This document shows, piece by piece, positions 229-32,771 of a DNA stretch of 64,000 nt. The translations under genes were made by a program, and so were the position numbers. The DNA is from a phage. The stretch is taken from assembly GCA_036930585.1 (NCBI GenBank), contig GCA_036930585.1_3066.1, one strand, 5' to 3'. The first letter of the stretch is position 1, and each line of letters opens with the position of its first letter. The notes beneath the pieces are model-generated. The model had not been told where the DNA came from. It worked only from the letters and a program-made list of their open reading frames with translations, and ran no database searches.

Positions 229-627
229 TCAGCCTTCATCAACAATAGTGTGAGTATTAGCATTTACGATTTGCCACCAATCAAAGCGATTAGAATCCAT
301 CGGTTTGTTTTCATTTTCTTTGATAATGTCACGGAGTTCATCTTCAGAGAATGCTTTAGCGATTAAATCGGTATACCCACCACGTGGATAATAATTATCA
401 CCTGCAAACAAAAGGAAATTTACCTTCCCGGAAGGAACATACGCTTCCTTAGGATACTTGTTTCCTGCGTGGTCAACCACTTCAATATAACGGTAAGGAA
501 TATCGGTTCTTTCAACCCATTGCCATGCCGCTGCAGGGGAATCGAAAGCATCTACACCTAAACGATTATCTTCATCTTTAGACGGATTATTTTCGTAATC
601 CGCATATACATAATATTCAACGTTCAT
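229..627 (-). CDS. hypothetical protein (132 aa)
   Basis: ORF track; start overlaps stop of upstream ORF (TAATG); no recognisable motif. Confidence 0.5.
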   Translation of the reverse strand: MNVEYYVYADYENNPSKDEDNRLGVDAFDSPAAAWQWVERTDIPYRYIEVVDHAGNKYPKEAYVPSGKVNFLLFAGDNYYPRGGYTDLIAKAFSEDELRDIIKENENKPMDSNRFDWWQIVNANTHTIVDEG

Positions 628-812
628 TATTCACCTTTAGAAATTTTATCCATAACAATAGCAATTAAACCAATTAAAAATGCTACTACAAGTGAAAACA
701 CATTTTCTGCTGTAGTCAATAATCCACATATAAATCCAACAAACATTGAAAAACTAAAAGCGGAAGCAGAAATTGCAATAGCAACATTTCGAATTAATTC
801 ACAACGTTTCAT
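627..812 (-). CDS. small hydrophobic protein, two predicted transmembrane helices (61 aa)
   Basis: ORF track; two hydrophobic stretches; RBS GAGGAGAATAAAATG; sits directly downstream of an early-promoter stem-loop. Confidence 0.5.
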   Translation of the reverse strand: MKRCELIRNVAIAISASAFSFSMFVGFICGLLTTAENVFSLVVAFLIGLIAIVMDKISKGE

Positions 813-870: not shown

Positions 871-1104
871 TTATTTTTTACGAAAAATTGATTTATTTTC
901 TGCTGCCCATTTTTCAATAACTGCAGCAGGACCAGTAACAACAATTTTATCACCGTAATCTTCTGCGGCGAGTTGACCGAAATTATCTAATGCATCACGA
1001 AGAACTCCATGAGGCATTTCACCCATTTTATCTTTCTTGCCAGTGTAAATAAACTCAACTTTTACATCAGCAGTTTCAGCAATAAATTCTTGGTAAGTTT
1101 TCAT
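871..1104 (-). CDS. internal-protein-like small protein with capsid-targeting-sequence-like N-terminus (MKTYQEFIAE); track ORF extends to 1116
   Basis: N-terminus MKTYQEFIAE matches the T4 internal-protein capsid targeting sequence as I recall it; ends in I-A-E, a gp21-protease-type site; located in the IP position next to 57B. Confidence 0.6.
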   Translation of the reverse strand: MKTYQEFIAETADVKVEFIYTGKKDKMGEMPHGVLRDALDNFGQLAAEDYGDKIVVTGPAAVIEKWAAENKSIFRKK

Positions 1105-1116
1105 TTTGATTTCCAT

Positions 1117-1180
1117 TTGGTTTTGTTTTGATAGGGTAATAGTATCACAACTAAAACCCTATGTAAACAACTTTGTGAAA
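1117..1180 (-). promoter_or_regulatory. early-promoter stem-loop module (PeSL-like)
   Basis: gtaaac at 1163-1168 (minus-strand GTTTAC), TGATACTAT -10 in loop of inverted repeat atagggt/accctat; near-identical 35-bp box tgtaaacaactttgtgaaattattttaaatcttct shared with 1491-1525. Confidence 0.45.
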
Positions 1181-1438
1181 TTATTTTAAATCTTCTAATC
1201 GTTTCTTCATCTTAGAACCATTTTTAGCAATTTCTCCTGCATCGGAGCATAATGCTAAAAGTGCTTTAACTTTAGTTTGGTCTCCTTTAAAAGATGAAGG
1301 ATCGACCGCAGCAGCAAGTTCTTTAATACGAGAGAAAAGACGCTCAGCTTCAGCTAAAGCCATTCCAAGCTTTACTTCCATACCGTGGGAAGATTCAGTG
1401 ATAGTAGTTTTTGTAGCAAACTCTTTGAAAGTTTTCAT
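1181..1438 (-). CDS. internal-protein-like small protein (85 aa) with CTS-like N-terminus MKTFKEFATK...ITE
   Basis: ORF track; N-terminal similarity to CTS pattern MKT(Y/F)(Q/K)EF; I-T-E candidate gp21 cleavage site; RBS AGGAAA upstream. Confidence 0.55.
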   Translation of the reverse strand: MKTFKEFATKTTITESSHGMEVKLGMALAEAERLFSRIKELAAAVDPSSFKGDQTKVKALLALCSDAGEIAKNGSKMKKRLEDLK

Positions 1439-1511: not shown

Positions 1512-2196
<685 letters not shown>

Positions 2197-2197
<1 letters not shown>

Positions 2198-2922
2198 TAT
2201 AGTACCTTTAGTGTATTTTTAATTTTAGAAAAAAGTTCTTCAAGAGAACCATCGTTTGTAATTACTAAATCGCCATCACGAATTGGCAATCCAGCTTCTG
2301 TAATATGTGTATCATTGGATTTTTGACCAGGACGAACTACATGAATTACTGTAGCACCCATCGCCCTAGCCGCATCCATTTCATGATCTTGACGGGTATC
2401 AGGAACGATATAATAATCATAACCTGAGTTAAATTTATCAAGATAATCTAAAGCAAATAATTTTACCCAGTACATGCGGTCGAAGTTATTAACAATCAAA
2501 TCCGTACCTAGGGCTTGCATCAGACGACGGACTGACCATTGATCTTCAATATTATTTATAACGTCAATAATCTTGTTAAATGCTACGGAATTAACTGATT
2601 CTTGTCCTTCGTCATCAAAAACAAACACACCTTTAATTGGGCTTTTACCATTAAGATAGCAAAATGCTTGTTCCATAATCGTGATTACTTCTAATTTAGT
2701 TAGATTTAAATTAGTCTCACGATCATAGTCAATTCCTTCAAACTCTTTACGAGTTAAGCAAGGATAGTCGGTATTTGCTGCAAATACTCCCCATGCATAA
2801 GCCAATGCATCCTTAATAGGACCAGCAAGTTGGTATTTAACTGCAGAATAATTGCTCATGATAAAATCAGCAGTAGTATCTTTTCCACTACGCTTTACAC
2901 CGCTTAAAAAGATTAGTTTCAT
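2197..2922 (-). CDS. 1: deoxynucleoside monophosphate kinase
   Basis: 241 aa, P-loop GVKRSGKDT near N-terminus, matches T4 gp1 length and position. Confidence 0.85.
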
Positions 2923-2971
2923 ATGTTTCTCCTCAAATTTAGTTAAGATTATAACACATGAAACTGAAGCA

Positions 2972-3502
2972 TTAAACTTCCGCTATAATTTTTCCATCTT
3001 TTTCTACTTGAAAATACGTATAAGGAATCGTTGCTGTACATACTAAAGCCGGGTCTGAATCTTCTGTGTAGCTAAATTCTACTTCAGATAGGTCAGAAAC
3101 CCAAGGCTTATAAAAATTTATTGACATCACGATTTCAGTTTTGCTATTATCTAAAATGTAAAGCGTAATGTATTCAGGACCTGTTTTTTGGGCAGTATTT
3201 TCACCTGTAAGATAGTTGCTAGTTCCTAGCATCCATTCATACATTCCTATCCATGACTTAAGTTCTTCATCAACTATAAATCTCACGATGAGTGGATCGT
3301 ACTCAAATGTAGCACCTGGACGTTGTGCTCGGCCCAGTCCAAACGGCCCAGTCACGGTATCAGTAACAGGTATTCTAATTCCTGGAATAGGAACTGACTG
3401 AGCATTTAAAGTAAAAGCAGATGTAGTATTACTATGTGGTATTGATACTACAAAGTTAGTTGTATTTGCTTGGTTAAAAATTTGTTGCAGTGCTTGCGAC
3501 AT
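2972..3502 (-). CDS. 3: tail completion / sheath stabiliser protein gp3
   Basis: 176 aa from internal ATG at 3502 (MSQALQQ..., RBS GAGGAA); track ORF starts 27 codons upstream at 3583; T4 order 1-3-2-4. Confidence 0.7.
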   Translation of the reverse strand: MSQALQQIFNQANTTNFVVSIPHSNTTSAFTLNAQSVPIPGIRIPVTDTVTGPFGLGRAQRPGATFEYDPLIVRFIVDEELKSWIGMYEWMLGTSNYLTGENTAQKTGPEYITLYILDNSKTEIVMSINFYKPWVSDLSEVEFSYTEDSDPALVCTATIPYTYFQVEKDGKIIAEV

Positions 3503-30628: not shown

Positions 30629-30629
<1 letters not shown>

Positions 30630-30868
30630 TGGAAGGTTTAATTGAAGCTATTAAATCAAACGACCTCGTAGCCGCTCGTAAATTATTTGCTGAAGCCATG
30701 GCTGCAAGAACGACTGATTTAATTAAAGAAGAAAAAATCGCTATCGCTCGTAATTTCTTAATCGAAGGTGAAGAACCTGATGACGAGGATGATGACGAAG
30801 ACGAAGATAGTGATGATAAAGACGACAAAAAAGACAAGGACTCTGACGAAGACGAGGATGATGAATAA
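30629..30868 (+). CDS. 67: prohead core protein gp67
   Basis: 79 aa with poly-acidic C-terminus ([16 protein letters not shown]...). Confidence 0.85.
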
Positions 30869-31293
30869 TGCTTCTGATCCCTGAAACTCATGAATTAGTT
30901 CTCGAGAATGTCGAAGCACTTATTCCTGAAGCACAGGGTCGCTTTGACGAATTGTCTTCTGCTTTAAATAAAGACGATATAAATACAATTGTCGAGAATA
31001 TGCTTGATGATGAAACTGATTTAGCGGTTGCATTAGCTTCTATTAATGAAAATATGCCGTTAAATGAATTTATCGTTAAACATGTTTCTGCCCGTGGTGA
31101 AATTACTCGCACTAAAGATCGCAAAACCCGCGAACGTAATGCATTTCAAACTACCGGGTTGTCTAAAGCAAAACGTAGACAAATTGCTCGTAAAGCTACC
31201 AAAACGAAGATTGCCAATCCAGCAGGTCAATCTCGTGCTCAGCGTAAGCGTAAAAAAGCTCTTAAACGCCGTAAAGCATTAGGATTAAGCTAA
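30868..31293 (+). CDS. 68: prohead core protein gp68
   Basis: 141 aa, same as T4. Confidence 0.85.
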
Positions 31294-31931
31294 TGAATGA
31301 ACCCCAATTACTAATTGAAACTTGGGGTCAACCTGGCGAAATTATTGATGGCGTACCAATGCTTGAATCTCATGATGGAAAAGACTTAGGTTTAAAACCT
31401 GGTTTATACATCGAAGGAATATTCATGCAAGCGGAAGTCGTCAATAGAAATAAACGTCTTTATCCAAAACGTATATTAGAAAAAGCGGTAAAAGACTATA
31501 TTAATGAGCAAGTTTTAACTAAACAAGCTCTCGGAGAATTAAATCATCCTCCACGCGCTAATGTTGACCCGATGCAAGCCGCTATCATTATAGAAGATAT
31601 GTGGTGGAAAGGAAATGACGTATACGGACGAGCTCGTGTTATTGAAGGTGACCATGGTCCTGGAGATAAATTAGCAGCTAATATTCGTGCCGGATGGATT
31701 CCAGGAGTTTCTTCTCGTGGATTAGGTTCATTGACTGACACAAATAAAGGTTATCGTATCGTAAACGAAGGATTCAAATTAACTGTAGGTGTTGATGCAG
31801 TATGGGGTCCAAGTGCTCCAGATGCATGGGTAACTCCTAAGGAAATTACCGAATCACAGACGGCGGAAGCCGATACAAGTGCCGATGACGCCTATATGGC
31901 TCTCGCAGAGGCCATGAAAAAAGCGTTATAA
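31293..31931 (+). CDS. 21: prohead core protease gp21
   Basis: 212 aa, same as T4. Confidence 0.9.
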   Translation: MNEPQLLIETWGQPGEIIDGVPMLESHDGKDLGLKPGLYIEGIFMQAEVVNRNKRLYPKRILEKAVKDYINEQVLTKQALGELNHPPRANVDPMQAAIIIEDMWWKGNDVYGRARVIEGDHGPGDKLAANIRAGWIPGVSSRGLGSLTDTNKGYRIVNEGFKLTVGVDAVWGPSAPDAWVTPKEITESQTAEADTSADDAYMALAEAMKKAL

Positions 31932-31934
31932 ATA
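31927..31934 (+). promoter_or_regulatory. T4-type late promoter TATAAATA for gene 22
   Basis: tataaata overlapping gene 21 stop. Confidence 0.5.
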
Positions 31935-31961
31935 TTATTATCTAAACAACAGGACTACAAA

Positions 31962-32771
31962 ATGCTTAAAGAACAACTGATTGCTGAAGCGCAGAAAATT
32001 GATGCTTCCGTTGCTCTTGATAGTATTTTCGAATCAGTTAATATTTCTCCGGAAGCAAAAGAAACTTTCGGCACTGTATTCGAAGCTACCGTCAAGCAGC
32101 ACGCCGTTAAATTAGCTGAATCTCATATCGCTAAAATTGCTGAAAAAGCAGAAGAAGAAGTAGAAAAAAATAAAGAAGAAGCAGAAGAAAAAGCTGAGAA
32201 GAAAATCGCTGAGCAAGCTTCTAAATTCCTTGACCATCTTGCAAAAGAATGGCTCACTGAAAATAAATTAGCAGTAGATAAAGGTATCAAAGCCGAACTG
32301 TTTGAATCCATGCTTGGTGGATTGAAAGAGCTCTTCGTTGAACACAACGTTGTTGTTCCAGAAGAATCAGTTGATGTTGTAGCTGAAATGGAAGAAGAAC
32401 TGCAAGAACATAAAAAAGAATCAGCTCGTCTGTTCGAAGAACTCAATAAGCGTGACGCATATATCAATTATGTGCAGCGTGAAGTGGCATTGAGCGAAAG
32501 TACTAAAGATCTGACTGAGTCTCAAAAAGAAAAAGTCTCTGCTCTGGTCGAAGGTATGGATTATTCAGATGCATTCTCAAGTAAATTGAGTGCAATCGTA
32601 GAAATGGTGAAGAAATCTAATAAAGATGAAAGCACTATTACTGAGAGTATAAATACTCCTGATACTGAAGCAGCCGGACTGAATTTCGTCACTGAAGCTG
32701 TAGAAGATAAATCTGCACAAGGTGCAGAAGATATTGTAAGTGTATATGCGAAAGTCGCATCTCGTTTCTAA
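31962..32771 (+). CDS. 22: prohead core scaffold protein gp22
   Basis: 269 aa, highly charged helical, same length as T4. Confidence 0.9.
   Translation: MLKEQLIAEAQKIDASVALDSIFESVNISPEAKETFGTVFEATVKQHAVKLAESHIAKIAEKAEEEVEKNKEEAEEKAEKKIAEQASKFLDHLAKEWLTENKLAVDKGIKAELFESMLGGLKELFVEHNVVVPEESVDVVAEMEEELQEHKKESARLFEELNKRDAYINYVQREVALSESTKDLTESQKEKVSALVEGMDYSDAFSSKLSAIVEMVKKSNKDESTITESINTPDTEAAGLNFVTEAVEDKSAQGAEDIVSVYAKVASRF

Follow-up and report, generated by a model that had tools for sequence, protein, structure and literature searches.

The internal-protein gene ip6 of a T4-like phage: a candidate packaged and injected protein with the capsid targeting sequence of T4 IPII and IPIII

Introduction

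We analysed a 64,000-nucleotide stretch of phage DNA (the window), a Tequatrovirus (T4-like) segment whose first 3 kb are 99.7-99.8% identical to vB_EcoM_WL-3, YUEEL01 and JK08. The open reading frame (ORF) at positions 871-1116 on the minus strand contains ip6, which is already named as Ip6 of T6-type phages and is one of the polymorphic internal-protein (IP) genes of the T-even phages; it is not new. It is highly probable that the product is Ip6 and, jointly, that it is packaged. The best overall explanation, in which ip6 encodes a precursor that would be packaged by its capsid targeting sequence (CTS) and injected as an inhibitor of host defence, appears likely to us. The identification is the re-discovery of an annotated gene from a well-described class, and a homologue of the mature protein Ip6* without the CTS, P0012, is a small new observation.

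Injected proteins act before phage gene expression and therefore decide whether modified T-even DNA survives the first contact with a host. Each of Ip1, Ip2 and Ip3 of T4 inhibits one GmrSD type IV subtype without cross-protection (PMC12373910). They were matched to GmrSD subtypes only recently (2007, 2025), and Ip4-10 are still orphans. The target of Ip6, once identified, would explain part of the host range of the phages carrying it.

Results

Identity of the gene

The ORF translates into 81 residues, MEIKMKTYQEFIAETADVKVEFIYTGKK...AAVIEKWAAENKSIFRKK, and reads MEIK-MKTYQEFIAE-TADVKVEF...RKK. It can be divided into two parts:

871-1104, minus strand: ip6 coding sequence, precursor of internal protein Ip6 (77 aa and stop; bounds as annotated in JK08 (ip6), YUEEL01 and T6)
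1105-1116, minus strand: upstream in-frame ATG and MEIK codons, most likely 5' untranslated region with the Shine-Dalgarno sequence GGAAA (1110-1114)

The 77-aa protein matched PHROG 8111 ("internal virion protein") over its full length (E=1.5e-52, profile positions 1-77 of 77) and is 98.7% identical to T6 Ip6 over all 77 residues, with a single conservative substitution, V62I. The proposal of an earlier, sequence-based note that the ORF encodes an internal protein with a T4-type CTS is supported; packaging itself we infer. According to tblastn, the protein is encoded in 246 phage records, with at least 99% identity in 110 of them, and more than 100 deposited genomes have an identical protein; the 246 include T6 (at 98.7%) and several phages isolated on clinical or pathogenic strains. 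The T6 protein shares the locus (Ip5 to trna.4), the flanking repeats and PHROG 8111 with the one in the window, and functionally nothing distinguishes the two.

The nomenclature can be followed through the public records. The T6 annotation (MH550421, AXN58171.1) gives 'Ip6', adjoining 'Ip5 ... replaces ipI', and the VR7 record (2010) is worded 'similar to bacteriophage T6 Ip6'. Orthologues in VR7, JK08, PST and GiZh are named ip6 or ipVI, and many public records label Ip6 an internal head or virion protein. Judging from this GenBank naming chain, the 'ip6' of Repoila et al. 1994 would be this exact sequence.

The family is narrow, comprising 11 clusters (90% identity) in a set of 5.8 billion proteins, and scans of IMG/VR and metagenomes found only close T-even copies. 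An exhaustive search gave three family representatives, one of them spurious. Several candidate relatives were rejected: P0013 (491 aa, five matching stretches) is an NHL-repeat protein with a score inflated by its repeats and hence spurious, P0011 is an assembly chimera of ribosomal protein L14 and the Ip6 C-terminus, and P0002 and P0003 (98 aa) are read-through ORF calls.

Translation start

The true start of ip6 is almost certainly the second ATG. The upstream ATG at 1114-1116 is not preceded by a Shine-Dalgarno sequence and overlaps the GGAAA of the MKTYQEF start, a motif found likewise before T4 ipII and ipIII. VR7-type and ECML-359 alleles have GGAG and lack an upstream in-frame ATG, and in KIT03-type alleles the extension differs and could start only at a GTG. 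The PHROG 8111 profile begins at residue 5 of the 81-aa form; both the profile and the public records have the 77-aa form. We placed the gene at 871-1104 because of the Shine-Dalgarno position, the extensions in other lineages, the public records and the PHROG profile. Thus, the in-frame ATG behind the MEIK extension considered in the earlier note does exist, but the extension is probably untranslated, given the GGAAA overlap and the 77-aa records.

It is barely credible that the frame is open by chance, or that the protein really made is the 81-aa MEIK form, in which the leader would be displaced and without function. A length of 81 aa is indeed given by some gene callers (P0001), and the closest sublineage keeps the upstream ATG, as MEIK or METK. 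The extension is, however, absent or different in other lineages, ip6 is under purifying selection (dN/dS of 0.10-0.35) and so many phage records encode Ip6, while the 81-aa form, cleaved at Glu, would result in the same mature protein. We exclude a chance match because of the exact 10-residue N-terminal match, the syntenic IP locus and the purifying selection.

Capsid targeting sequence and predicted cleavage

The precursor is predicted to consist of a leader and a mature part:

1075-1104, minus strand: capsid targeting sequence MKTYQEFIAE (codons 1-10), predicted gp21 cleavage after Glu10 (I-A-E / T)
874-1074, minus strand: predicted mature Ip6*, 67 aa, 7.4 kDa, pI 6.5, ferredoxin-like beta-alpha-beta-beta-alpha-beta domain

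The leader, which the earlier note had recognised as the T4 internal-protein CTS, indeed matches the N-termini of T4 IPII and IPIII, as translated from NC_000866, in 10/10 residues. It is not the leader of IPI, which, as translated from the T4 gene, has 19 residues, MKTFKEFTSTTTPVSTITE (MKTFKEF...ITE), as opposed to the 10 residues in Ip6. MKTYQEFIAE is quoted as the CTS (PMC8442874), and the first 10 residues of IPIII suffice for the packaging of a foreign protein in T4 heads and are cleaved off by gp21 (PMC9026906, PMC8442874). Residues 4 and 7 matter most for targeting, residues 8 and 10 for processing (PMC9026906, PMC8442874), and gp21 cleaves after Glu in L/I-X-E (PMC9026906).

The Leu/Ile-x-Glu cleavage context reported in the earlier note is present as well: I-A-E at residues 8-10, followed by T, is the only [LI]xE site in Ip6. 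The P1' residue is Thr here, as opposed to Ala in T4, and is T, S or A across the Ip6 alleles. The CTS is conserved across these alleles even though their mature parts are only 48-83% identical. Cleavage after Glu10 would release a 67-aa, 7.4-kDa near-neutral Ip6*, for which the N-terminal semi-tryptic peptide is predicted to be TADVKVEFIYTGK. Packaging and processing of Ip6 are thus predicted from the sequence. Literature searches on Ip6, on Ip5/Ip6 of T4-like phages, on polymorphic internal proteins and on internal head proteins in virion mass spectrometry gave no hits, and neither virion proteomics nor N-terminal sequencing of Ip6 came to light in the literature searched. Phage fPS-65 has an identical protein, and its paper reports no proteomics.

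Prohead genes and the proposed route into the head

The window also encodes the machinery on which a CTS-bearing protein would depend, together with the portal protein gp20, gp23 and Alt:

31293-31931, plus strand: gp21 prohead serine protease, the expected CTS-removing enzyme (Pfam Peptidase_S77, E=1.5e-111)
30629-32771, plus strand: prohead core genes 67, 68, 21 and 22 (ORFs), the scaffold targeted by CTS proteins; gp22 matches Pfam T4_CASP (E=5.7e-90)

In the mechanism that we propose, the early-type promoter of ip6, and possibly read-through from further upstream, would provide the transcript for the 77-aa precursor, whose N-terminal CTS would bind it to the gp22 scaffolding core. Subsequently, gp21 would cut the precursor after Glu10, and the 67-aa Ip6* would stay with the DNA in the head and be injected along with it. 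By analogy only, Ip6* would then act stoichiometrically in the cytoplasm within seconds of infection.

Directly upstream of ip6 there is only an early-type promoter. The nearest late-promoter motif on the same strand, TATAAATA, is located at 2553-2560, ~1.4 kb upstream and inside gene 1. The missing adjacent late promoter is no argument against packaging because the T4 genes ipI, ipII and ipIII share this early-promoter layout, and about 360 copies of each of their products are packaged (PMC9026906).

Architecture of the polymorphic locus

The gene ip6 lies beside ip5 in the classical, polymorphic locus of ipI, which 57B and trna.4 delimit:

2197-2922, minus strand: gene 1, dNMP kinase
1967-2197, minus strand: 57A
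1512-1970, minus strand: 57B, anti-CBASS nuclease Acb1 (Pfam PF23474, E=2.5e-60)
1457-1527: repeat copy 1 (~71 nt), upstream of ip5; promoter 1498 to 1470, hairpin about 1460-1489; same sequence as upstream of T4 ipI
1181-1438, minus strand: ip5, neighbouring internal-protein gene, 85 aa, IPI-type leader MKTFKEFATKTTITE (PHROG 3499 'internal head protein', E=1.2e-49)
1126-1196: repeat copy 2 (~71 nt), upstream of ip6; hairpin about 1123-1170, -18.1 kcal/mol, z -4.4
1139-1167, minus strand: sigma-70 early-type promoter upstream of ip6, TTTACA-17-TACTAT with TG extended -10 (promoter scan)
828-898: repeat copy 3 (~71 nt), downstream of ip6 and upstream of trna.4; hairpin about 830-861, -18.5 kcal/mol, z -4.4
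627-812, minus strand: trna.4
229-627, minus strand: trna.3

The promoter scan called a sigma-70 early-type promoter in the repeat copies of both ip5 and ip6. An inverted repeat covers the conserved -10 region in all three copies, with folding energies of -17 to -18.5 kcal/mol (z about -4.4), and T4 ipI, ipII and ipIII have the same promoter/hairpin layout upstream. No intrinsic terminators were found in the ip5/ip6 locus. Compared with T4, ip5 (so named in JK08) takes the position of ipI behind an identical promoter, and the insertion point of ip6 and an additional repeat copy coincides exactly with the promoter/hairpin preceding T4 trna.4; repeat copy 3 aligns with the T4 element at that place. 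The content of the locus varies among phages.

Genes between 57B and trna.4
T4: ipI
This window, T6, JK08 and YUEEL01: ip5 and ip6
KIT03: ip6 alone
VR7: five ORFs
ECML-359: five ORFs, 5/5 with CTS-like starts

The alleles have also been exchanged. The KIT03 ip6 (L012 1801-2034) is 83% identical to 871-1104 of the window with a dS of 0.37, between 57B and trna.4 flanks that are 99-100% identical with a dS of 0.05-0.08; this divergence between near-identical flanks indicates allele exchange. In its C-terminal half KIT03 Ip6 is similar to the VR7 allele, a sign of mosaic exchange between alleles. Exchange of ip6 alleles agrees with what later reviews ascribe to Repoila et al. 1994.

The 71-nt repeat runs into coding sequence (1181-1196 and 1512-1527), and both 57B and ip5 end in ...EDLK-stop (GAAGATTTAAAATAA). 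These shared ends imply that recombination at the repeat shaped the C-termini of the upstream genes. Ip5, with a basic mature part (pI 9.2), has three [LI]xE sites (ITE15, LAE30 and IKE40), so that gp21 could cut it more than once. Acb1, Ip5 and Ip6 would together form a small counter-defence cluster, and many records still label 57B 'RNA ligase' or hypothetical.

The second IP locus and DNA modification

In the near-identical genome of YUEEL01 the second IP locus is empty: the lysozyme gene e is directly followed by denV (L013 7053-7113), and the 60-bp gap keeps the T4 ipIII-type promoter/hairpin. The empty locus implies a phage type without ipII and ipIII, in which Ip6 is the only bearer of an IPII/III-type leader.

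YUEEL01 also carries a-gt and a T2/T6-type beta-glucosyl-HMC-alpha-glucosyltransferase (L014 21439-22641 and 34253-35095), a combination implying gentiobiosyl-hmC DNA. The IP repertoire (Ip5/Ip6 as opposed to Ip1-3) may co-vary with the type of DNA modification.

The mature domain

The earlier note had judged the mature part of about 67 aa to be unlike any T4 IP, and this was borne out. Ip6* has no sequence similarity to mature IPI, IPII, IPIII, Ip5 or the other ORFs of the locus; the best BLASTP hit against mature IPI* had E=3.4 over 10 residues. Searches with Ip6 returned no similarity in NCBIfam and no PDB chain at E<=10 by sequence. A Pfam match to IF3_C (PF00707) was rejected, with E=0.0065 and 16.8 bits below the cut-off of 34.8, as it reflects only a shared beta-alpha-beta-type topology.

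The AlphaFold model, computed from an 8-sequence alignment, has a pLDDT of 82.3 and a beta-alpha-beta-beta-alpha-beta core, and the CTS is modelled as a low-confidence helix. The model is ferredoxin-like, and IPI*, with which the earlier note had suggested a structural comparison, was not among the fold matches listed. The best structural match in BFVD was VR7 Ip6 (TM 0.91), and Foldseek against the PDB returned nothing at E <= 0.001. As modelled, the fold is generic ferredoxin-like and offers no functional clue. The loop GKKDKMGEMP (residues 22-31) is invariant in the Ip6 alleles. Ip6* has equal numbers of K+R and D+E (11 each) and a pI of 6.5, and so is not basic like the mature T4 IPs (pI 9.0-9.65), although a basic mature protein does not strictly define the T4 IPs.

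A homologue without the targeting sequence

P0012, a protein of 63 aa encoded on a Logan SRR21291451 contig (L007 3001-3192, plus strand; also in L008-L010), is 60% identical to Ip6* and starts three to four residues past the predicted cleavage site. Its gene has in-frame stops upstream, its own Shine-Dalgarno sequence and a GTTTAC-type promoter. The contig belongs to a divergent, otherwise unrelated metagenomic phage; it encodes a T4-type baseplate protein (Pfam PF12322), shows a weak MotA-like match, and has the P0012 gene at a different locus. The comparison suggests that Ip6 would be a CTS fused to a free-standing module, and the lack of a CTS in P0012 supports a soluble, cytoplasmic site of action for the Ip6 domain. 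Nucleotide similarity of L007 to isolates (about 73% identity) is confined to about 440 bp (2816-3255) around P0012.

Discussion

Comparison with known internal proteins

Polymorphic IP loci were reportedly described by Repoila, Tetart, Bouet and Krisch (EMBO J 1994) as carrying a conserved leader on unrelated ORFs. They are said to have flanking repeats of about 70 bp with an early promoter and an overlapping inverted repeat, and the number and identity of the ORFs are said to vary between phages. All of these features are reproduced at the window locus, without any difference in kind. Ip6 belongs to a class described since 1994, which PMC3012670 and PMC12373910 cite from Repoila et al. for the T-even IP loci. 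Ip6 has the traits of T-even CTS-bearing IPs: the MKT[YF]xEF N-terminus, the L/I-X-E site, the hyperplastic locus with repeats, and the prohead core and gp21. The similarity to IPI* in sequence or fold that would characterise an IPI*-type GmrSD inhibitor was not found.

The closest counterparts in T4 are IPII and IPIII, which share with Ip6 the identical CTS, the IAE site, the GGAAA Shine-Dalgarno sequence and the early promoter/hairpin upstream. However, their mature sequences are unrelated to that of Ip6 and basic (pI 9.4-9.65, compared with 6.5), and their genes are situated at the e-denV locus, which is empty in the ip6 phage type (YUEEL01). Ip2 and Ip3 have GmrSD targets, whereas 'ip6' is among ip4-10, which gave no reproducible interaction (PMC12373910). 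IPI, in turn, is encoded at the same locus between 57B and trna.4 and has a mature size of 76 aa, compared with 67 aa for Ip6*. IPI* is an inhibitor of GmrSD from E. coli CT596, and the logic of an injected stoichiometric inhibitor proposed for Ip6 is the same. IPI* is reported to consist of two beta-sheets with terminal helices at the flanks, whereas Ip6 is predicted to be ferredoxin-like and has no sequence similarity to it.

Alternatives to an injected inhibitor

A packaged Ip6 might instead serve the particle itself, as a prohead-core filler, a co-scaffold or a DNA-associated protein replacing IPII and IPIII. The empty second IP locus of YUEEL01, where Ip6 is the sole bearer of an IPII/III-type CTS, would fit such a role, as would the head-assembly aberrations of T4 IPIII mutants (PMC9026906). 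We nevertheless hold it to be improbable: with its pI of 6.5, Ip6* is not basic, which makes neutralisation of DNA charge unlikely, ip6 is absent from T4 and occurs in only 246 phage records compared with 895 matching the 3-kb locus query, and its alleles are swapped between lineages in a pattern typical of arms-race accessory genes. Moreover, all three T4 IPs now have anti-restriction targets (PMC12373910).

Even more doubtful, and in our view very improbable, is an Ip6 that acts only as an early cytoplasmic protein, its CTS-like N-terminus being a relic of recombination without meaningful packaging. The early-type promoter directly upstream, with no late promoter adjacent, is compatible with this idea, and the CTS-less homologue indicates that the domain can function without packaging. 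Against it, the CTS has been kept across alleles whose mature parts have diverged to 48-83% identity, the packaged T4 IPs have the same early-promoter arrangement, and the ten residues of the CTS are enough for unrelated proteins to be packaged.

Possible role against host defence

Our preferred reading remains that of a packaged and injected Ip6*. By analogy with the T4 IPs, Ip6* may specifically inhibit a modification-dependent nuclease (type IV, GmrSD-like) or another first-line defence, a proposal to which we give an even chance; its target may be relevant to T6-type gentiobiosyl-hmC DNA. The neighbouring gene 57B supports an anti-defence role because it encodes the anti-CBASS nuclease Acb1. 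IPIII without its CTS is active from the cytoplasm (PMC9391042). Against such a role, assays of 'ip4-10' on eight GmrSD systems showed no reproducible inhibition, the 'ip6' of that study being linked to Ip6 by name (PMC12373910), and T6, with Ip5 and Ip6 in its deposited genome, is still restricted by GmrSD-ECOR17 and by the leaky GmrSD-ECOR21.

More tentatively, Ip6* could inhibit a host defence other than the tested GmrSD subtypes, such as a nuclease or sensor specific for gentiobiosyl-hmC or a non-restriction first-responder, and a module of ~63 aa might be delivered either by injection (with the CTS) or by immediate-early expression (as the free form in L007). We consider this proposal possible rather than probable. 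If true, it would show T-even phages turning early anti-defence genes into injected ones by means of a 10-residue tag.

Other reading frames with CTS-like starts

In YUEEL01, a 54-aa ORF upstream of the DNA primase gene, in the position of T4 61.1 (L014 39353-39517, plus strand), starts with MKTYKEFIKE-D. Its leader has an I-x-E end and is the only other CTS-like start in that genome; the ORF may encode an unrecognised packaged protein or be a coincidence. ECML-359 (Gaprivervirus) contains two unannotated ORFs of this kind, one of 99 aa starting with MQTFHEFLVE (L005 1857-2156) and an Ip6-like one of 84 aa starting with MKTYQEFINE (L005 2501-2755), with about 48% identity to Ip6. Once both are counted, the ECML-359 locus has five tandem CTS ORFs.
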